A stretch of DNA of 64,000 nucleotides, taken from the NCBI GenBank assembly GCA_902784805.1, contig CACZWD010000012.1:11133-75132 (forward strand), read 5' to 3'. Positions 20,620 through 30,883 of the stretch are shown here, piece by piece (within the stretch, counting starts at the first letter, position 1; the number at the start of each line of letters is the position of its first letter). The translations under genes were made by a program, and so were the position numbers. The notes below the pieces were generated by a model. It saw nothing but the letters and a program-made list of their open reading frames with translations, was not told the DNA's origin and ran no database searches. The stretch is from an uncultured Ruminococcus sp. GTDB lineage: Bacteria > Bacillota > Clostridia > RUG12999.

Positions 20620-21339
20620 TTATTTTTCCTTTGCTTCTTTTTCTCTTTCCGCCTGAGATTTTCTTAAATATTCCGCGTTAAGCGTGTCGGCGCTTGCCGT
20701 TTCGCCCCGCAGAGCTTTTTCATACGCTGCAAGCGCAACGCTTGACGCTCTTTGAGAGTTATTGTTAAAGCCCGCGAAAACCGCGGTTTTTCCAAGTTCT
20801 TTAAGCCTTTCAAGATTTGGTTTAACTCCGTCACCCAAAAAAAGCACTTTTTTGTTTTTAAGAGCTTTCATTTCGTTTATAACGGTATCTATTCCGACCG
20901 CTCTCGGTGGAACAACGGTTTTTAAAGAATAATTATTTCCAGAAGAAACTAAGTTTCTTTTATATACGGCATTATATACCTGCCCGGCACGCGCGTCCAT
21001 AAGGGGGCAGATAAGACAGTCGGTAAACTGTACGTTTCTTGCCATAGCCTCAAGTGTGCTGACAGCAATCACAGGTTTTTTTTCGGCAAAGGCAAAGCCT
21101 TTTACGGCGGCAATGCCTATCCTGAGACCTGTAAAAGAGCCGGGACCGTTTGTTACGGCAAAAACATCAATATCTTTTATGCTGAGCGCAAGAGCTTTTA
21201 AAAGCGAGTCGATAAGAGGCATGAGCTTTTGTGAGTGTGTCAGCCCGTTTATAAGTGTATATTCGCCGAGAAGCGCGCCGTCATCAATTACAGCCGCCGA
21301 ACAAACAAGGCTTGAGGTATCTATCGCTAAAATTTTCAT
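20620..21339 (-). CDS. tsaB: tRNA t6A37 biosynthesis protein TsaB (YeaZ)
   Basis: 239 aa. Contains MKILAIDTSS and GPGSFTGLRIG. It overlaps tsaE by 4 nt. Confidence 0.88.
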   Translation of the reverse strand: MKILAIDTSSLVCSAAVIDDGALLGEYTLINGLTHSQKLMPLIDSLLKALALSIKDIDVFAVTNGPGSFTGLRIGIAAVKGFAFAEKKPVIAVSTLEAMARNVQFTDCLICPLMDARAGQVYNAVYKRNLVSSGNNYSLKTVVPPRAVGIDTVINEMKALKNKKVLFLGDGVKPNLERLKELGKTAVFAGFNNNSQRASSVALAAYEKALRGETASADTLNAEYLRKSQAEREKEAKEK

Positions 21340-21782
21340 TTTTTAAGCTCGCTCCTTCCGGTTAAATTTTCGGTAATACGTCTGAAATTTTCGCCTTTTA
21401 AGGAATCCTTTTCAATAGTAATATCAATAAATCTTTTCGCGGGATAGTTTTTAAGAAGTTCGGGCCATTCCACAAGACTTATGCCACTGCCGTCCAGAAA
21501 CTCGTCAAGCCCCGCGTCATAAAGTTCATCTTCGTTTTCAAAACGGTAGAGGTCAAAATGGTAAATCGGCGGATTATCGCCGTAGATATTCATAATGGCG
21601 AAAGTGGGGCTGCAAACGTCCTCGTCACAGCCGAAATACGCGGCAACGCCTCGCACAAAAACGGTTTTGCCGACTCCGATTTCACCGTGCAGACGGACAA
21701 TATCACCCGCTTTAAGCTTTGCCGCGAATTCCAACGCGGCGGCGACGGTTTGTTTTTCATTAAGGGTTTCCGTAACTTTCAT
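21336..21782 (-). CDS. tsaE: tRNA t6A37 biosynthesis ATPase TsaE (YjeE)
   Basis: 148 aa. P-loop GEIGVGKT, then SPTF and HFDLYR motifs. Confidence 0.88.
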   Translation of the reverse strand: MKVTETLNEKQTVAAALEFAAKLKAGDIVRLHGEIGVGKTVFVRGVAAYFGCDEDVCSPTFAIMNIYGDNPPIYHFDLYRFENEDELYDAGLDEFLDGSGISLVEWPELLKNYPAKRFIDITIEKDSLKGENFRRITENLTGRSELKK

Positions 21783-22012
21783 TTGATTATCAATCCCTTT
21801 TATATCTGTCAGATAAAAATACTGTACTATTATATTTTACCACATTTCGGCATAAATTTCAAGTTTTATTGTAAAAACAGGTATAAAAACAGGTATAAAG
21901 ATAAAATATTTTTATATTCGCAAAAAAATAAATGCCTTCCGTGAAGGGAGTGCAAGTTAGGGATTTTTACAAAATGAATTTATAGCGGCACTCTCCGAAG
22001 CGGAAACGAAAG

Positions 22013-22063
22013 AATACCACATCTTAGGTTTTAAGCCTTTGATGTGGTATTTTCTGTGTTTTT
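22013..22063. terminator. 11-bp perfect hairpin at the left edge of the AT-rich island (probable terminator; strand ambiguous)
   Basis: AATACCACATC / GATGTGGTATT (22013..22051). On the plus strand TTTCTGTGTTTTT follows. On the minus strand CTTTCGTTTCC follows, downstream of the R-M operon. Confidence 0.5.
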
Positions 22064-22111
22064 ATTCATAATGAGATTTTTAAATATACTAATACAATTG
22101 TGTATAATATT

Positions 22112-23044
22112 TTATTTTAGCCCAGCTTTGTAAGTTAATTCTTCAATAATTGCCCTATATTTCAAAATGTTTGGTTCGATATCTTTTTTGTTAGAGTTAA
22201 ACCAAATTTTATGAGCAGAATAATTTCCAAGTTCTTTAAAAAGAGCCATATCTTTTTTAGAATTTGCAGAGAGTGCCAATGTTGAATTTTGTGCTGCATT
22301 TTTTATTATTTTATCAAGGGTGTAATGATATCCATTTTTATCCATAATATCAGATTCAATATTATTATTTTGGTAAGACAAAACAAGAAGTCCTTCTAAC
22401 AGCCTTCGCATCATTACTGCTGTACAATCATATAGATTATTCTCATAGCTTGCGTTTATCTGTTTACACAAAGATTGAATGTTTGGCGAAAGTCCTTCAA
22501 AAATTACTGTTGAAAGAATTGTACCATCTTGTTCGATTTTCGTATCATCATCCCAATGATTAATATCGTCAATCCAATGTTTCATAATTGAAGACCATTG
22601 GCTCCAGTTTTTTGAAGATATGCTGATTCTGTTCACTTCAGTTTGAAAATCATAAATAATTTGATTTTCAGTCCAACCTGCCTTTCTAAGCGCACCTATG
22701 TATTGTATCATTATGTTTTCTGCATTAGAATCATTCCAATACGGATATGCTCGTTTGCATATGTTATTTATGTGCTTAATTTCCTGTTCAATCGGAGAAA
22801 GTGATTTGTTATAGGCAATACCTCCAAGCTTATTTAAAAACTCGTTTACAGCTTTCTTTGTAACGCAACCATTTTCATCATATCGAAAATAAGAAGCAAC
22901 ACCGATATCTATACACTCTTTCAGCAATTCGTATGGATATTTTGCAACGAGTTGACCAATATCAGATTTCCCTTTTTCATTAAGAGAAAAAGGATATATT
23001 TTTTCCGACACAATAGTTTCAATTTTCTTTTTCCCCACAAGCAT
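22112..23044 (-). CDS. hypothetical protein with a DUF4145-like C-terminal domain, last gene of the Type III R-M operon
   Basis: 310 aa, starting 22 nt downstream of res on the same strand. The C-terminal third (YENNLYDCTAVMMRRLLEGLLVLSY ... LGNYSAHK) resembles the DUF4145 helical domain seen in restriction/abortive-infection proteins. I do not recognise the N-terminal two thirds. The GTG at 23038 may be the true start. Confidence 0.55.
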   Translation of the reverse strand: MLVGKKKIETIVSEKIYPFSLNEKGKSDIGQLVAKYPYELLKECIDIGVASYFRYDENGCVTKKAVNEFLNKLGGIAYNKSLSPIEQEIKHINNICKRAYPYWNDSNAENIMIQYIGALRKAGWTENQIIYDFQTEVNRISISSKNWSQWSSIMKHWIDDINHWDDDTKIEQDGTILSTVIFEGLSPNIQSLCKQINASYENNLYDCTAVMMRRLLEGLLVLSYQNNNIESDIMDKNGYHYTLDKIIKNAAQNSTLALSANSKKDMALFKELGNYSAHKIWFNSNKKDIEPNILKYRAIIEELTYKAGLK

Positions 23045-23066
23045 TCCTCATTTCAATGAATCAGTA

Positions 23067-25313
23067 TTATTGAATAAACACCTCTATTGGCTTCCATACA
23101 TTCCTGTTGGTAACATCCTCTGACCATACCGTGTTAGAGAGATAAATCTGTGTTCCTACTGCCCGGACAAACCCCCATTTTATTTCCGGATGACGAGAAG
23201 CATAATCCTTTAACGCATCAAATTTACGGGGAGCAAATCTATCAACATTATTTGAACTGCCATCTGCAGTCATTCCGCCTTTTGCTTCAATAATCCATAT
23301 ATCGCCATTTTTAAGTTGAATTATGTAATCAGGGTAGAAGTTATTACGTCTGAACGCCTTGCGATATACAATGTTGAAATACTCATCTCCCTTATCACCG
23401 TTTTTATAACACCATTTAACGGGGTCATAATTTTCACACCAATCTTCAAAAGAAATCTCTGTAACTGTACGGTTTGGCTGAATGAGTATGTTATTGCCAT
23501 AATCGACAAATGGGTTCTTATTCATGATTTTAGTGCTTGGAATACGCTTATGCTGTTTGTAGTACTGTTCTCTTGGAATATACCAATCGGCAGTCACGAT
23601 ATCCGTTTCTTCAATATCTGCTATTCGGTCGGCACTGATATCGCTGAATACTTCTATAAGCCTTTCCCTATTATTAACAAGAAATGCGTTGTATTCCCGA
23701 AGACTCAGCCCATCTATCAGTTTATGCTCTCTTTCAAACGCTATTTCTTCTTCTGAAAGCAGAGACATTTGCATATCCATCGGTCCAAAAAGCACACGAA
23801 GAGCATTATTTGAAATGTTTTCATCAATTCCGATTGCCCTTGCTATACGACGCTTGGCATCACGGATTATAAAACCGTCATCGTGATTGCTTATTTGATG
23901 CTCGCCACCAAAAATTCTGTTTAATGACTTTATGTCATGGGTGGTTCTTGCAACGCCTTCAATGGCTGCTGTCTTAAGTTTCGTGCCAAAAACATAGCCT
24001 TTGCTTCTTTCCATTTCGTGCTTGTCCAGCTTACCGTTATGGTCAAGGTCACACTCTGAAAGCATCTGTTCACGAACAACTTTTACAACAGCCTCCGGAT
24101 TTACGGCATAACGGTCGCTTCCGTTAAGGGATTCTTTTTGCAACATAATGTTCGGAGCGTCAAATTTCCGTTTGTATAAATATGTATAGAAAGAATCGCC
24201 TATACTGTTTGTTAATCCCTCGACATATTCACTGTCAAGCGTATAAACATAGCAGTTGTCTATAAGTGGGCACTCATAATGTGTCCGTTCCGGCATACGG
24301 CGAACACGTCCCACGGTCTGAATGTTAAAGCGTTCAGTGCCGCCTTCACGTAGTTTTACAAGTATTTTTGCGCGAGGACAATCCCAACCAGTAGCAATAG
24401 CTTGCTTAAAGAGCAAAAATGCATATTGACCGTCTAATTTTTTTATTTCATCCGTATTATCGGGATGGTCTCCGCTAAACCATGAAGCCACAAGACCTGA
24501 GTTCTCAGAATAGCCCAAGTCATCTAATGCTCTTTTTACACGCTCTATCCATTCATCATAACCGTTTGGAAACTGTATCAGGACAAGCGGACGTATTTTT
24601 AAGTCGCGGCGGTCATATTCTGCCTGTATTTCTTTTCTCTTTTTGTCTGCCAATTCAAGAAGGAGAAGGTCATCATCAAGACTGTTGTTTTCTTCAATGG
24701 CTTTAGAAACTCCTTCGTTTATAGAAATTCCTGCTGCAATAAGTCCTTCTCCAATAACCTCATCGTCAGGTATAATTTCCGTATGGTCACCTCTGCTGAC
24801 GGGAGTTGCGGATATACGAAGAACATGAACAGGCTGAATATTACCTATATATTCATTTGCAGTTGCCTGATACTTATGTTCCTCATCTATAAGCATAAAA
24901 ATGTTAATATTGTTCGTATGGCAAAATAATACTTTTCCCATTAGGTCACGATGTTCACCTTCACGGAGAACAACATTCGATGTGCGATTTATTTTATCCC
25001 AGTTGATAAAGAATACTTTGCCACGGGGGTCGCTTTCGTTTATAAAAGCGTAAACATCTCCGTCCGGGATGCCGGATGTTACTTCTCTAAAACTGTCTTG
25101 AGACTGTTTTTCCAGTCCACCAGCACCGGGACACAACCACAAAAAGACCGTGTTGGGGTTCTCGTCAAGGTAATCATCAATAAATTTTGATACAAGAACT
25201 GTTTTTCCTGCACCCGTAGGAGCGGAAAGAACAATTTCCTCATGGTCTGCACATTTTGCCAGTAGATTTTCCTCGTGCTTTGCCTGAAAATCAAATAATT
25301 TCGCAGTAAACAT
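23067..25313 (-). CDS. res: Type III restriction enzyme Res subunit (SF2 helicase plus PD-ExK nuclease)
   Basis: 748 aa. Helicase motifs are I SAPTGAGKTV, II LIDEEHKY, III ISATP and VI QTVGRVRR. The C-terminal nuclease core reads YPDYII...IWIIEAKGG. The start overlaps the mod stop (TAATG). Confidence 0.85.
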   Translation of the reverse strand: MFTAKLFDFQAKHEENLLAKCADHEEIVLSAPTGAGKTVLVSKFIDDYLDENPNTVFLWLCPGAGGLEKQSQDSFREVTSGIPDGDVYAFINESDPRGKVFFINWDKINRTSNVVLREGEHRDLMGKVLFCHTNNINIFMLIDEEHKYQATANEYIGNIQPVHVLRISATPVSRGDHTEIIPDDEVIGEGLIAAGISINEGVSKAIEENNSLDDDLLLLELADKKRKEIQAEYDRRDLKIRPLVLIQFPNGYDEWIERVKRALDDLGYSENSGLVASWFSGDHPDNTDEIKKLDGQYAFLLFKQAIATGWDCPRAKILVKLREGGTERFNIQTVGRVRRMPERTHYECPLIDNCYVYTLDSEYVEGLTNSIGDSFYTYLYKRKFDAPNIMLQKESLNGSDRYAVNPEAVVKVVREQMLSECDLDHNGKLDKHEMERSKGYVFGTKLKTAAIEGVARTTHDIKSLNRIFGGEHQISNHDDGFIIRDAKRRIARAIGIDENISNNALRVLFGPMDMQMSLLSEEEIAFEREHKLIDGLSLREYNAFLVNNRERLIEVFSDISADRIADIEETDIVTADWYIPREQYYKQHKRIPSTKIMNKNPFVDYGNNILIQPNRTVTEISFEDWCENYDPVKWCYKNGDKGDEYFNIVYRKAFRRNNFYPDYIIQLKNGDIWIIEAKGGMTADGSSNNVDRFAPRKFDALKDYASRHPEIKWGFVRAVGTQIYLSNTVWSEDVTNRNVWKPIEVFIQ

Positions 25314-27217
25314 TATTCAGCCGCCTCCCTTAATTCCTGACCGAAGAATTCTCTCGGTATGTATTTGAAGTCGAGTGCATTTAATCGTTCCATTTCTTCG
25401 GAATTGAATATGATATTTTGATTCACCCAGATATTTTCAATTTGTGTATAAGCTTCATCGTTCAATACATATTTGCGGAAATCTTTTTTATTTAAAATAA
25501 GCACATTTTTTACATTATCTACCTCAATACTGTTTTGAAGTTCTATCATTTCTTTGATGTGTAAGCATAGAGCATTGCTGAGCAGATAATCCTCTGGCTT
25601 GCGAGGTGTCCAATCGCATTTATAGTATTTCAAATTAGCGGATATTCCTTCTGAATACTTCGTGCCATCTGTGCGAATGCCTGTGATTACAGTTTTTATC
25701 CTTGGATATGTAACGCTATGGCATATACCGAGAGCCTGATATTCGTCCGTGGCAATAGCGGTATGATAATCGTCTGATGTTTTAAACGCTGTCCATTTCT
25801 CTTTCCATTCAGGCTCTTTTTTTGTGCCTTTTCTCGGAGGAGCATCAATAATGCCCTTCTCCTCAAAATAAGATAGTTTCTTTTTGTCTGTAACCTCATT
25901 GTTAGTGCAAATGATAAACTCTCTTTTACCGCCGTCCTCGGCATTTAGCTCTAAAACTGCCTGTGAAGTTGTACCAGAACCAGCAAAGAAATCAAGTACT
26001 ATTGCGTCATCCATGCGTGTAGAGCATATTAGCTTTTTTATGAGTTTAACAGGCTTTGGATAGCTGAAAATTCTTTCCGTACCAAAGAAATCTATAAGTT
26101 CATTGTCCGCATCTTCGTTTGAACCCCATCCGCTATCAAACAGATTATTTACATTGATCGGGGTATCATATGCATTGTTTTCATCATTACCAACTCTGGA
26201 CAGTAAATCCTTCATGGTCTTGTAGCGAGGAGTTGAAACTATTCTCCTAATATATAAAGCGTTGGTTATATACAATTCTTGGTTAATCGAGTATTCATAC
26301 ATGGCATCACTTTTATATCTCCAATTACCCTCGACTTCAAAATCCTGCGTTACAACACCATTTTCAATAACTAAGTCAGTGATGTACTTGATATTCATTG
26401 TGGAATCCGAAATAACGGTACCCGCCGGAACTACATAGTTCTTTTCTCTATAGTTACTCTTTATACCTTTTGATACCTTGCAAATAGAGCGTCTATTGCT
26501 TGCATTAATGCACGGATATGTTTCTGTTTCAGTATTTATTTCACCTATCAAGCCCGCAAAGTCATCTTTGTCCTTACAATAGACAAGGACATATTCTTTA
26601 ATGTTGGTTATTTGATTTGACAAAAAAGACCCTTTTTTCTTTTTTTCCCAAACCAGCTGAGCGACAAAATTCTTAGCATTGAAAATCTCATCACAAAGCA
26701 TTTTTAATGGTGCCATTTCATTATCGTCAATGGACATAAATATTACACCACGCGAGGATAAAAGGTCATAGGCGATTTCGAGCCTACGTTTCATAAAAGA
26801 AAGCCATTTTGAGTGCCTAAAAGTATCCTCTGTTCCGACCATATTATCATTGTAAAAGAAATCTTCATTACCAGTGTTATATGGAGGATCTATATAAATC
26901 ACATCGATTAATCTTTTATGTGTTTTTTGCAACAGATATAAACTTTGCAGATTATCCCCCTCAAGAATAAAGTTATATTTTCCATTCTCGGATGCCGTTA
27001 TTTTCTTTTCAGTATCTTCGGCAAAAACAGGGATATGGGTACGAAGTTTAACATCAACCACCTCTTCATGCTCTTCCCATACAAGACCATATTTTTTGTC
27101 TCGAATATGATTTTCTATTTCCGTAAACGCACGGATGGAGTCATCATCCGTATGTTCTTTTCGTAATGTTTCTAAAAAATCCAACATGCGCTGACGCTTT
27201 ATTTGAGATAGATTCAT
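25313..27217 (-). CDS. mod: Type III R-M Mod subunit (N6-adenine/N4-cytosine DNA methyltransferase, beta-class motif order)
   Basis: 634 aa. Motif IV IYIDPPYNTG precedes motif I LDFFAGSGTT, and a variable region lies between them. Confidence 0.88.
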   Translation of the reverse strand: MNLSQIKRQRMLDFLETLRKEHTDDDSIRAFTEIENHIRDKKYGLVWEEHEEVVDVKLRTHIPVFAEDTEKKITASENGKYNFILEGDNLQSLYLLQKTHKRLIDVIYIDPPYNTGNEDFFYNDNMVGTEDTFRHSKWLSFMKRRLEIAYDLLSSRGVIFMSIDDNEMAPLKMLCDEIFNAKNFVAQLVWEKKKKGSFLSNQITNIKEYVLVYCKDKDDFAGLIGEINTETETYPCINASNRRSICKVSKGIKSNYREKNYVVPAGTVISDSTMNIKYITDLVIENGVVTQDFEVEGNWRYKSDAMYEYSINQELYITNALYIRRIVSTPRYKTMKDLLSRVGNDENNAYDTPINVNNLFDSGWGSNEDADNELIDFFGTERIFSYPKPVKLIKKLICSTRMDDAIVLDFFAGSGTTSQAVLELNAEDGGKREFIICTNNEVTDKKKLSYFEEKGIIDAPPRKGTKKEPEWKEKWTAFKTSDDYHTAIATDEYQALGICHSVTYPRIKTVITGIRTDGTKYSEGISANLKYYKCDWTPRKPEDYLLSNALCLHIKEMIELQNSIEVDNVKNVLILNKKDFRKYVLNDEAYTQIENIWVNQNIIFNSEEMERLNALDFKYIPREFFGQELREAAE

Positions 27218-27277
27218 ACTTGCGTTTCCTTTCTTTGGTGTTTGACACTTATCCTTAAAGCCTATTCCGTTTTAATG

Positions 27278-27529
27278 TCAAGTCAGAGTTTTGCAATCTC
27301 TTTCTGTATAAATTCCTGCATATACATTTGAAGTTGCCATGTGAAATAACTTCTCGATATCAAGCCCACGAAAATGCTCTTTCATTTCGTCTGTCATATT
27401 CTGTGTTCCGTACAGCCCTTCCGCATAATAGTAAAGAGCATCAAGAAATTCATAAAAATCCTTATCGGAAAGCAATTCATCCAAATACGGCATTGTTTTT
27501 ATGCGTTCCAAGTCAGTCTGCGGATACAT
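27278..27529 (-). CDS. hypothetical 83-aa protein upstream of mod (possibly a 5'-truncated remnant)
   Basis: It is co-oriented with mod, with a 60-nt gap and a weak RBS. The in-frame sequence upstream of the ATG still reads like protein (NIKNEGFFGLSEASVECLRRAKE) but has no start codon. Confidence 0.35.
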   Translation of the reverse strand: MYPQTDLERIKTMPYLDELLSDKDFYEFLDALYYYAEGLYGTQNMTDEMKEHFRGLDIEKLFHMATSNVYAGIYTERDCKTLT

Positions 27530-27692
27530 CTCTTTTGCTCGTCTCAGGCACTCAACAGATGCTTCGGATAAGCCAAAAAATCCCTCGTTTTTGATATTAA
27601 AATTTGTTTCGCAAAAATTATAATAACATAAAGTTTCGTATTTGTCAATGATTTCTCAAAAAATTCAAAAACAGAAATTTAAAAATATATGA

Positions 27693-27720
27693 ACCTTTTT
27701 ACTTACCAACGCATAATATA
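27693..27720 (+). promoter_or_regulatory. sigma-K-like promoter candidate (AC-N17-CATAATATA) upstream of the Cys-rich gene
   Basis: AC at 27693..27694, a 17-nt spacer and CATAATATA at 27712..27720. This matches the AC-16/17-CATANNNTA mother-cell consensus. The AT-rich context makes chance matches likely. Confidence 0.3.
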
Positions 27721-27769
27721 ATAGTGATTCTGCTACGCAGATACATATTTTATATAAGGAGGCATTTTT

Positions 27770-28660
27770 ATGGCCATGGAAAGAAACGGTATGCACGGAG
27801 GCAGACCGAGCGAATCTGTTTGTGTGCAGACCGACAAAATTTATGACTCCTGCAAAAGTAAAGAATGTGCCGAGGATTTGCGTGTGTATTTCAGCGGCGC
27901 GGCACAGGAGCTTATTGACCGTGCCAATAATGTACGGCTTAAAGACGCGCAGGTGCTTTATGTTGATACGGATGTTGAAAAAATTCAGTTTAACAAATGT
28001 TACTATAATGTAAATATGACATTCTATTTTAAGGTAACGGTTGAAATTTCGACGGGCTGCGGCACGGGAACCTGCCTTGACGGACTCTGCATTTACTGCA
28101 AAAACGCTATGCTGTTCGGGTCGGAGGGCTGCTCATATGTATTTTCTTCAAAGGATTCGGGCTGCGGCAACATAAAGCTTACGAGAAACGCGAATATGCC
28201 GACCGCAATTGTTGAAACAATTGACCCTGTCGCGCTTGACTGCAAGCTTACCGAAATGTGCTGTGATTGTCACAATTCCGTAAATGACTGCAAATGCTGC
28301 GGCGCGCCGGGAAATGTGCCGGAGCTTGTCGGCGGAATATTTGCGGACGGTCTTGTTGAAAACGGTCAGAAACGTGTTTACGCAACTCTCGGGCTTTTCA
28401 TATTTATCAGGCTTCAGCGTAATACCCAGCTTTTAATTCCGAGTTACGATTTCTGTATTCCGCAGAAAAACTGCGTGAGCGCAGGCTGCGGTGACGACCC
28501 GTGCTCCTTCTTTGAAAAGCTTGAATTCCCGATTGACTCGTTTTTCCCGCCGTCACATTGCTGCGATAACAATGCGGTTTCCTGCCGTGACGAGGATGGA
28601 GGCTGTGACCGTCCCGATTTTAATCCGCCCGCGCAAAAATCAAACCCTTTCGGCAAATAA
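27770..28660 (+). CDS. cysteine-rich hypothetical protein (putative spore coat/exosporium component)
   Basis: 296 aa with AAGGAGG 8 nt upstream. It has roughly 25 Cys, including CC, CxC and CxxC clusters (MCCDCHNSVNDCKCCG, HCCDNNAVSC), and no signal peptide. It has its own terminator. Confidence 0.6.
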   Translation: MAMERNGMHGGRPSESVCVQTDKIYDSCKSKECAEDLRVYFSGAAQELIDRANNVRLKDAQVLYVDTDVEKIQFNKCYYNVNMTFYFKVTVEISTGCGTGTCLDGLCIYCKNAMLFGSEGCSYVFSSKDSGCGNIKLTRNANMPTAIVETIDPVALDCKLTEMCCDCHNSVNDCKCCGAPGNVPELVGGIFADGLVENGQKRVYATLGLFIFIRLQRNTQLLIPSYDFCIPQKNCVSAGCGDDPCSFFEKLEFPIDSFFPPSHCCDNNAVSCRDEDGGCDRPDFNPPAQKSNPFGK

Positions 28661-28673
28661 GCGGATTATTGAA

Positions 28674-28705
28674 AAAGCGCCCTGCCTTTTTTGACAGAGC
28701 GCTTT
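28674..28705. terminator. hairpin terminator between the convergent Cys-rich gene and the XRE gene
   Basis: AAAGCGC...GCGCTTT stem with inner CTG/CAG pairs, flanked by A/T runs. Confidence 0.6.
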
Positions 28706-28714
28706 AAAAAATAC

Positions 28715-29035
28715 TTATTTTTGATTATGCAATAAAAAATTCATAAAATCAACAGCGGATTTCTTGTTTTCCTCGGAAAGCCCGGAGAAAACCGATTCAA
28801 ACCTGTCTAAAATTTTGTTGTTTTTAATATTGCTTACACCAAACAGATAATCAAGAGAAACGTTATAATAATCGGCAAGAGCAAGTATCATATTCGCGTC
28901 ACCGGGGAAATGCTTATCCGTTTCATAATATCCGTACATTCTGGCGGAAGTATTGAGAATGTTCGCAATGTCTTTTTGTCTGAGCTCTTTTTCTTCACGT
29001 AAATACCGAAGTCTTTCGCCAAAAGTCATAGCCAC
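28715..29035 (-). CDS. XRE-family helix-turn-helix transcriptional regulator
   Basis: 106 aa. HTH_3 signature FGERLRYLREEKELRQKDIANILNTSARMYGYYE. Confidence 0.85.
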   Translation of the reverse strand: MAMTFGERLRYLREEKELRQKDIANILNTSARMYGYYETDKHFPGDANMILALADYYNVSLDYLFGVSNIKNNKILDRFESVFSGLSEENKKSAVDFMNFLLHNQK

Positions 29036-29112
29036 ACCCTCTTTCTTTTTTTATTATTATAATATATTATTTCCATATATGCTTAAAAAAGAAGTAAAAT
29101 TTCCCAAAAGTA

Positions 29113-29151
29113 TTGACAAAGAAATAAACCTTCTGTATAATATTTATACAG
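29113..29151 (+). promoter_or_regulatory. promoter (TTGACA-17-TATAAT) with an overlapping perfect inverted repeat (candidate XRE operator)
   Basis: TTGACA at 29113..29118 and TATAAT at 29136..29141. The inverted repeat CTGTATAA-TAT-TTATACAG at 29133..29151 covers the -10 in the divergent intergenic region. Confidence 0.55.
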
Positions 29152-29223
29152 AAACAATATTTCGGAAATAAAAAAGTATGGACTTATCAATATAAAATTT
29201 TAATGAAACAGAGGTTAATTGTT

Positions 29224-30227: not shown

Positions 30228-30602
30228 ATGAGAATGTTTGAAATAGAATTTTATATGGACAAAAACGGTTATTCCGAAGTCTATGAATGGATATTACAAA
30301 TGGATAAAAAAGCCGAAAAGAGTAAAGACTATCGAATACGGCTAAAAAAGCTATATGAATATCTTGAAATTTTATCTAATTACGGAACATTTATAGGACA
30401 GCCTGTTGTTAAGCAGCTTAAAGGCACAGATTTTTGGGAATTACGACCTACAAGTGACAGAGTTATTTTTGTTCATGTGATAGGCAATAAATTCTTGTTG
30501 CTCAATCATTTTGTAAAAAAAACACAGAAGACACCTATAAGAGAGATTGAAAAGGCAAAACGTATGCTGAAAGATTATAAGGAAAGGAGCAATCAAAAGT
30601 GA
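30228..30602 (+). CDS. higB: type II toxin, RelE/ParE superfamily (HigB / phage Gp49-like)
   Basis: 124 aa. The pattern FYMDKNG.SEV.EW...L..L...G...G.P..K.L.G.D.WELRP.....R..F matches the Gp49-like killer family. It overlaps the downstream HTH gene by 4 nt. Confidence 0.8.
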   Translation: MRMFEIEFYMDKNGYSEVYEWILQMDKKAEKSKDYRIRLKKLYEYLEILSNYGTFIGQPVVKQLKGTDFWELRPTSDRVIFVHVIGNKFLLLNHFVKKTQKTPIREIEKAKRMLKDYKERSNQK

Positions 30603-30883
30603 GCAAACAATTGACATGGACAGAGGTTAAAAAAGAATTAAATTCAATATCTCAGGAAGATATTGATGAAATTGATTTAAAAGTCAAAATTATCGGTGAA
30701 ATTCTGAAAGAGCGCCAAAATGCCAATCTTACACAAGCACAAATGGGAGAGCTTACCGGAATGAAACAAGAGTTTATTGCAAGAATTGAAAGTAATAAAA
30801 CCGATCCGCAATTAACTACCGTATTAAAGCTTCTTCGTCCGCTTGGTTTGACGTTGGAAATTGTTCCGTTAGTGCATAAATAA
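30599..30883 (+). CDS. higA: type II antitoxin, XRE-family HTH (HigA-like)
   Basis: 94 aa with a GTG start in a GTGA overlap with higB. HTH reads NLTQAQMGELTGMKQEFIARIESNK. Confidence 0.8.
   Translation: MSKQLTWTEVKKELNSISQEDIDEIDLKVKIIGEILKERQNANLTQAQMGELTGMKQEFIARIESNKTDPQLTTVLKLLRPLGLTLEIVPLVHK

Follow-up and report, generated by a model that had tools for sequence, protein, structure and literature searches.

The last gene of a type III restriction-modification (R-M) operon in an uncultured Ruminococcus sp. encodes a 310-amino acid (aa) protein whose sequence suggests an independent, single-protein HEPN ribonuclease (RNase) of the abortive-infection type, riding the operon as a second line of defence; we give this reading a probability of about 0.6. 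The locus lies on the minus strand of a 64,000-nucleotide (nt) stretch of contig CACZWD010000012.1 (assembly GCA_902784805.1, positions 11,133 to 75,132), hereafter the window. It comprises an 83-aa open reading frame (ORF; orf83, 27529-27278), the methyltransferase gene mod (634 aa, 27217-25313), the restriction gene res (748 aa, 25313-23067) and the 310-aa gene (23044-22112), a passenger that encodes a predicted two-domain HEPN protein of the DUF4145 type. A previous examination of the same letters (the sequence-only reading) had weighed two roles for the fourth gene: an accessory of the R-M system, such as a specificity or sensor subunit, or an independent defence gene carried along by the operon. 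The second is favoured here, whereas unrelated R-M partners and a variable slot behind res speak against the first. The domain architecture of the protein, the conservation of its motifs, the cassette-like mobility of its gene and its linkage to R-M and defence genes are observed directly.

Exhaustive HMMER searches resolved the 310-aa protein into two separable modules. Its family comprises more than 400 clusters at 90% identity (E <= 1e-3), with a mean column identity of 74%, and the top 120 listed are 59-80% identical over the full length; most members come from Clostridia metagenome-assembled genomes of the gut and anaerobic digesters, and others from Bacteroidales and further groups. The C-terminal module (residues ~171-310, 22112..22534, minus strand) also occurs with other N-terminal regions, in proteins of ~243 aa and in integrase-like fusions. 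The resemblance of this third to DUF4145, pointed out in the sequence-only reading, holds up: PF13643 matches the window protein at residues 205-290 (E = 8e-4, 19.8 bits), and of 46 sequences from the family and its distant relatives, 29 match it as well (best E = 1.4e-8). By this transitive homology, the C-terminal third of the protein probably belongs to DUF4145, a HEPN family.

Residue conservation was counted over 46 sequences, made up of family members and distant relatives that share only the C domain. Q195, N197, D206 and E217 are invariant, and R213, R214, G273, N274, H278, R297, E301 and E302 nearly so. Position 270 is lysine in 26 sequences and arginine in 17, G273 is present in 45, and N274 and H278 are present in 43 each. 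The putative catalytic motif, K270-E-L-G-N-Y-S-A-H278 (22211..22237, minus strand), has the consensus [K/R]-x-[LI]-G-N-[YF]-S-A-H, that is, [K/R]-x7-H; G273 stands where the canonical HEPN motif R-N-x3-H, of the Rx4-6H type, has its arginine, and the basic residue lies at -8 from H278. The HEPN fold has four helices arranged up and down. In a two-domain AlphaFold model the C domain is helical (predicted local distance difference test, pLDDT, ~80), and its fold weakly resembles that of 2q00, an archaeal protein that we take to be a HEPN protein (template modelling score TMt 0.61, E 9.8). A sequence search of the PDB with the 310-aa protein gave no match, and no relative of solved structure was found there by sequence profile or by Foldseek with the full model or the N domain.

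The N-terminal module (residues 1-170, 22535..23044, minus strand) is an all-alpha domain of an unclassified family, which we presume to be a sensor or regulatory module. Its ~165 residues (~10-170) are modelled by AlphaFold as eight helices (pLDDT 92.9; predicted template modelling score, pTM, 0.72). No match to it was found in Pfam, NCBIfam or PADLOC, in the PDB by sequence, or by Foldseek at E < 0.001 in either the PDB or the BFVD viral models, where the hints were not significant (a 405-aa protein at TMq 0.47, E 0.09; G39P-N/'replisome organizer' at TM <= 0.31); it does match phrog_16986 (3e-5), to which no function is assigned. C44 is the sole invariant cysteine, and there is no Cys4 pattern. 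The domain also stands alone, in proteins of ~165 aa, and is found in fusions: after an HNH nuclease and a coiled coil, before a Ser/Thr kinase, after NAD synthase and DnaB_2 and, weakly, with a restriction endonuclease. In the HEPN survey of Anantharaman, Makarova, Burroughs, Koonin and Aravind (2013; PMC3710099), the partners of DUF4145 include zinc ribbons, DpnII/MboI-NTD, AbiJ-NTD1 and sigma-HTH, among others, and Table 2 describes AbiJ-NTD1 as alpha-helical, ~140 aa long and fused to DUF4145, kinases and restriction endonucleases. The partners of the present N domain (DUF4145, kinase, HNH and, weakly, restriction endonuclease) resemble that list, a likeness compared by description only. 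The N domain is a new, unannotated element.

Gene neighbourhoods were compared at 23 full-length loci from species-representative genomes. At nine of them a co-oriented R-M operon lies directly upstream and the 310-aa homologue is the last gene, with junctions of -23 to +110 nt. The upstream systems are type I hsdR-M-S or hsdR (L001, L009 and L019), IIG-like nuclease-methylase fusions with an S subunit (L007 and L011), type II genes (a MutH-like nuclease and a C5 methylase in L002; a C5 methylase and a 328-aa protein in L005) and type III mod-res pairs unrelated to that of the window (L003 and L004). Three more loci have other defence genes upstream, namely AbiTii (L020 and L021) and a UvrD-like helicase and DUF2290 pair (L014), and defence genes of any kind adjoin the homologue at 12 of the 23. 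A homologue 72% identical to the window protein follows a non-orthologous type III operon (EcoP15I-type Mod, 983-aa Res; gap 31 nt), and two others, 75% and 64% identical, follow type I operons, the latter at a gap of 9 nt. Homologues are also found in a prophage, adjoining a RelA_SpoT gene; in a mobile island of Ethanoligenens harbinense with Mrr and helicase genes; and downstream of tyrS, def, guaA or surface-protein genes. The association of the family with R-M and defence genes is very strong and is not tied to any one partner. Homologues without such a link were what the sequence-only reading had named as evidence against itself; R-M neighbours at nine loci and other defence genes at three are what we find.

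Such linkage has precedent. In PMC3710099, DUF4145 is a HEPN family listed 'in operon with R-M', and the paper sets out both HEPN genes embedded in R-M operons and a 'multi-pronged defence' idea. The sequence-only reading had set the locus against the two genes of classical type III systems, but extra genes of this sort are no exception: the 2013 catalogue contains R-M-embedded HEPN genes, DUF4145 included. The R-M-linked DUF4145 clade described there shares with the 310-aa protein a C-terminal DUF4145-type HEPN domain (a probable one in the 310-aa protein), a position at the end of R-M operons, variable N domains and a predicted role as second-line suicidal RNase. The text consulted does not, however, name the 310-aa subfamily or its helical N domain of 165 residues, and the R-M association seen here links a single narrow family to operons of type I, II, IIG-like and III. 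Two further arrangements were seen around homologues. In a Paludibacteraceae genome (L002:10923-11819), where the homologue follows the MutH-like nuclease and C5 methylase, a Bro-N and Fic/DOC gene comes after it with a 14-nt overlap, a layout that matches the R-M/HEPN/DOC neighbourhoods of PMC3710099. Proteins with an Lcl C-terminal domain (PF07603) are encoded directly upstream of the homologue in two unrelated rumen genomes (L016:8854-9744 and L018:2281-4206).

Comparisons at the DNA level point to a bare cassette, a ribosome-binding site (RBS) plus an ORF, as the exchanged unit, and, in one type III lineage, to a slot behind res that takes alternative accessory modules. Homology between the window and loci with other R-M types covers only the interval from 23055/23040 to 22112-22122, that is, the TGAAATGAGG RBS region and the ORF, and homology to the orthologous type III operon of locus L054 ends at 23071, the res stop. 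Judged by these boundaries, the 310-aa gene behaves as a mobile RBS-plus-ORF cassette without a promoter of its own. The window Res is 90% identical to that of L054 and 81% identical to that of the relative G005. In the slot after res, L054 and L055 (both with 90% identical Res) carry a 306-aa Abi_C HEPN gene at a distance of 13 nt (L054:9157-10077), G005 (L066:2-1431) carries a Peptidase_M78 (IrrE/ImmA-like) and DUF4411 pair, and L051-53 are empty. Among 40 relatives, two genomes carry the 310-aa gene, one of them as a degraded copy, and two different genomes carry this Res; none has both.

The Abi_C protein, of the AbiJ type (PF14355), shares with the 310-aa protein its slot, a similar size and a two-part layout, but its motif is R-x6-H rather than the [K/R]-x7-H of the 310-aa family. 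The 310-aa protein has no match to PF14355 (hhalign probability of 0.2% against the Abi_C family alignment), and a common N domain was rejected when BLASTP and hhalign, applied to the whole proteins, found no significant similarity between the two. At two other loci (L048:6880-8090 and L010:9880-11090) the cassette is flanked by a direct repeat of 36-38 nt, 92-94% identical, that consists of the hsdS 3' end and the TGAAATGAGG RBS, with the second copy ~100 nt beyond the stop codon of the cassette. Gene calling placed no hsdS upstream in L010, and the cassette may therefore have moved together with hsdS-tail flanks. Neither a duplication of the res 3' end nor a similar direct repeat was found flanking the cassette in the window.

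We regard the 310-aa gene as a rider because the same gene, at 60-80% identity, follows unrelated R-M types, AbiTii, prophage and housekeeping genes, and because orthologous type III operons hold other cassettes or none in the slot after res. On the same two grounds we rejected the idea that the protein confers specificity on the type III enzyme or forms a structural part of it.

HEPN domains dimerise, and the active site that results is composite, needs no metal and is built from a histidine and a basic residue. For the 310-aa protein we infer an RNase activity, a trigger and an abortive outcome along the following lines. A promoter-less RBS-plus-ORF cassette would have landed 22-28 nt after res, where it would borrow the transcription of the operon and so be expressed together with restriction. 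Going by its family, which includes the characterised abortive-infection RNase RAZR, the C-terminal DUF4145 domain would be a HEPN endoribonuclease with K270 and H278 as the likely active-site pair, and the N domain would keep this RNase inactive and serve as its sensor. Should an infection proceed despite restriction, a phage-derived cue may free the RNase, which would then cut tRNA, rRNA or mRNA; translation would stop and the infected cell would yield no phage.

Several points weigh against an independent RNase that rides the operon. That the gene recurs immediately behind restriction genes could mean that it is functionally coupled to R-M and does not merely hitch-hike. The window protein scores under the Pfam cut-off for DUF4145 (19.8 vs 23.1 bits), Foldseek of the two-domain model returned no significant HEPN match, and none of the PADLOC profiles, which presumably include a PD-T7-4 model, matched the 310-aa protein at E <= 0.1. 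The active-site loop, residues 276-281, is modelled at pLDDT < 50. Finally, catalytic competence is not assured, because G273 replaces the canonical HEPN arginine and the upstream basic residue is mostly lysine in this clade.

The first of these points leads to the alternative that survives best. The gene for the anticodon nuclease PrrC lies inside the EcoprrI type Ic R-M locus; the protein begins with an ABC ATPase, is masked by its specific type Ic partner and is triggered by the phage factor T4 Stp. It is possible, albeit not probable, that the 310-aa protein is a guardian of this sort, coupled physically or functionally to the R-M enzyme and latent until a phage anti-restriction factor disables restriction; the N domain would then respond to something that R-M failures have in common rather than to a particular enzyme. 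Coupling would fit a gene that is repeatedly last, directly after the genes for restriction or specificity in three types of R-M system, but the partners are non-homologous (HsdS, HsdR, C5 methylase and Res) and roughly half the loci lack an R-M neighbour. Junctions that often overlap or measure 9-35 nt suggest translational coupling, and stand-alone N-domain genes also occur in type I and AbiTii contexts; nevertheless, the neighbouring R-M type already differs at 72-75% protein identity, orthologous res operons function with a different cassette behind them or with an empty slot, and the 310-aa gene and this Res never co-occur in the 40 relatives. As with PrrC and RloC, a HEPN RNase gene, here a predicted one, stands in a restriction operon, and restriction would come first and translation shut-off second; PMC3710099 proposes the PrrC analogy for R-M-linked HEPN clades. 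The 310-aa gene differs from both, however, in its many unrelated neighbours, often none, and in having no ATPase: searches of Pfam, PADLOC and NCBIfam gave no P-loop or ATPase family match in the protein, where PrrC and RloC have an N-terminal ABC/Rad50-like ATPase.

A broader version, which we hold to be doubtful, would make the N domain a portable 'restriction-failure sensor' common to HEPN, HNH and kinase effectors, and the family a generic R-M guardian rather than a free-standing Abi gene. If this were true, translational coupling would wire the N domain preferentially to the 3' ends of type I, II and III operons, and the cue would be one common to failed restriction, e.g., an anti-restriction protein, unmodified replicating DNA or the R-M assembly state. 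On this view, the direct repeats of 36-38 nt from the hsdS tail, which flank the cassette in some loci, would be the trace of a dedicated exchange route between R-M operons.

The glycine at position 273 raises another question, whether the HEPN domain is catalytically dead. The protein would then be an RNA- or protein-binding regulator or adaptor, e.g., an expression modulator or antitoxin-like partner, with no nuclease activity. This is conceivable because glycine takes the place of the arginine of R-N-x3-H (in 45 of the 46 sequences), and HEPN families that keep the histidine without the arginine, as well as non-catalytic HEPN proteins such as MtlR, are noted in PMC3710099. We nevertheless think it unlikely: even distant relatives retain H278, N274 and the basic residue eight positions before the histidine, a polar conservation unexpected for a mere scaffold, and the active RNase RAZR is reported with an R...H pair at the same spacing. 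RAZR/PD-T7-4 of E. coli is a single-gene abortive-infection DUF4145 RNase that needs R146 and H154 (PMC13017515; PMC9519451). The x7 spacing of these residues equals that of [K/R]270...H278 when compared by reported positions, not by alignment (PMC13017515). The two proteins are also alike in that a single gene encodes a sensor at the N terminus and a DUF4145 HEPN RNase at the C terminus, both predicted in the case of the 310-aa protein. In contrast, RAZR is a ~25 kDa protein whose Cys4 zinc-ribbon sensor assembles on phage ring proteins, whereas the 310-aa protein, at 36 kDa, lacks a zinc ribbon (one cysteine is conserved), begins with a helical N domain that is unrelated and matches nothing in PADLOC. 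The 310-aa protein was therefore rejected as a RAZR orthologue for want of both the zinc ribbon and the PADLOC match.

Least likely, and in our view very improbable, is a purely selfish addiction or stabilisation element, a toxin-like gene that spreads behind well-expressed mobile operons by post-segregational persistence and brings no benefit against phages: a mobile cassette without its own promoter, low in G+C and patchy in distribution, found also beside housekeeping genes and flanked in L048 and L010 by 36-38 nt direct repeats of the hsdS 3' end, would suit it, but no cognate antitoxin gene travels along, because homology is limited to one ORF, a single stable protein alone cannot give post-segregational killing, and the enrichment beside defence genes (12/23 loci) fits defence islands.

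The layout of the operon that the 310-aa gene is thought to ride agrees in each particular with the sequence-only reading, down to four co-oriented, tightly packed minus-strand ORFs. They stand behind one strong sigma-70-type promoter-like site, TTGACA-17-(TG)TATTAT (27648..27620, minus strand; 11/12 hexamer matches), which is the best on the minus strand in 21000-29200, lies 91 nt 5' of the orf83 ATG and is the likely operon promoter; between 25766 and 23045 the search of the minus strand turned up no promoter-like site. The mod stop overlaps the res start in the expected TAATG (gaaTAATGttt), and the two genes are translationally coupled. From the res stop, the predicted 22-nt gap leads to the ATG of the 310-aa ORF and a gap of 28 nt to a GTG at 23038. 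The GTG is the likelier start because a GAGGA box abuts the ATG at 23044 and lies 6 nt 5' of the GTG, and homologues begin MGKKKIETI or MARKKIETI; the true product is thus probably 308 aa long. The hairpin anticipated after the fourth gene (22013..22051, minus strand) has a 14-bp interrupted stem followed by UUCUUUCGUUU, with z = -3.6 for the folded region against shuffles, and probably serves as an intrinsic terminator, one whose U tract is weak; another small hairpin of terminator-like form is located at 21947..21935. Spacing and layout make a single transcript for all four ORFs plausible. The G+C content is 31% for the 310-aa gene, 40% for res and 36% for mod, and the operon lies within an AT-rich accessory island. 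Elsewhere in this island, at 30228-30883, are ORFs of 124 and 94 aa that overlap by 4 nt.

Type III systems cleave DNA in an ATP-dependent manner at inversely oriented unmethylated sites, and their Mod subunit hemi-methylates. The mod-res pair of the window, which the sequence-only reading had recognised as the type III core, is confirmed by profile matches and motifs. Mod matches PF01555 (1e-35) and PADLOC MTase_III (4e-107) and has IDPPY in its translation; the DPPY motif and PF01555 are those of the N6-adenine (beta-class) type, and a central recognition region is present. On this evidence mod encodes a type III DNA methyltransferase of the N6/N4 kind, whose central recognition region is variable. 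Res, encoded directly 3' of mod, matches PF04851 ResIII (8e-13) and PADLOC REase_III (2e-14) and combines a superfamily 2 (SF2) helicase-type ATPase (motifs APTGAGKT and DEEH) with a C-terminal PD-(D/E)xK nuclease. The PD...EAK motif of the latter was placed by alignment at P661-D662...E676-A-K678 (~23280-23333), and an NCBIfam restriction-endonuclease model matches weakly at Res 625-683. At 748 aa, Res is shorter than the matching PADLOC REase_III profiles (809-973 positions). Taken by its motifs, the pair is an ordinary type III R-M system, apparently intact. Within mod, DNA homology to the L054 operon is lost at 26846-25729, the operon being otherwise 76-77% identical, which is consistent with a swapped target-recognition region; Mod would therefore confer a methylation and cleavage specificity different from that of L054.

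The 83-aa ORF, in contrast to the core, is not the intact extra component that the sequence-only reading had supposed. It lies within a decayed leader gene (27265..27619, minus strand). Fourteen homologues of 63-146 aa were found, and they head orthologous type III operons in the order orf-mod-res (L051-53) or orf-YhcG nuclease-mod-res-Abi_C (L054-56); in L054 a YhcG/DUF1016 nuclease gene thus stands between the leader ORF and mod. The longer homologues bear the end of an XRE-type helix-turn-helix (HTH; VSVDYLLTG). In the window, homology extends 5' of the ATG (GLSEASVECLRRAKE) without a start codon and changes frame near 27381-27344, after which the consensus frame has an in-frame TGA. These features mark orf83 as the 5'-truncated, frameshifted and stop-interrupted remnant of a conserved small leader gene of this type III lineage, which probably contributes no protein function here any more. 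A controller protein was rejected for orf83 on the grounds that this remnant retains no HTH and matches nothing in Pfam, PADLOC or PHROG.

HEPN genes in R-M operons, DUF4145 among them, have been known since 2013 (PMC3710099), and a DUF4145 RNase has since been characterised (PMC13017515). What is new here is the 310-aa family, its unannotated N domain, the boundaries of the cassette at the DNA level and the variable slot after res. For annotation, such genes are better not called R-M subunits, nor should the decayed 83-aa ORF be counted as a component of the system. With the 310-aa protein, a well-populated family (more than 400 clusters at 90% identity) joins the HEPN 'second-line' genes that ride restriction operons, and its N domain, which is confidently modelled, lacks a known relative and recurs together with effectors of the nuclease and kinase kinds, offers a clean starting point in the search for a new phage-sensing module.

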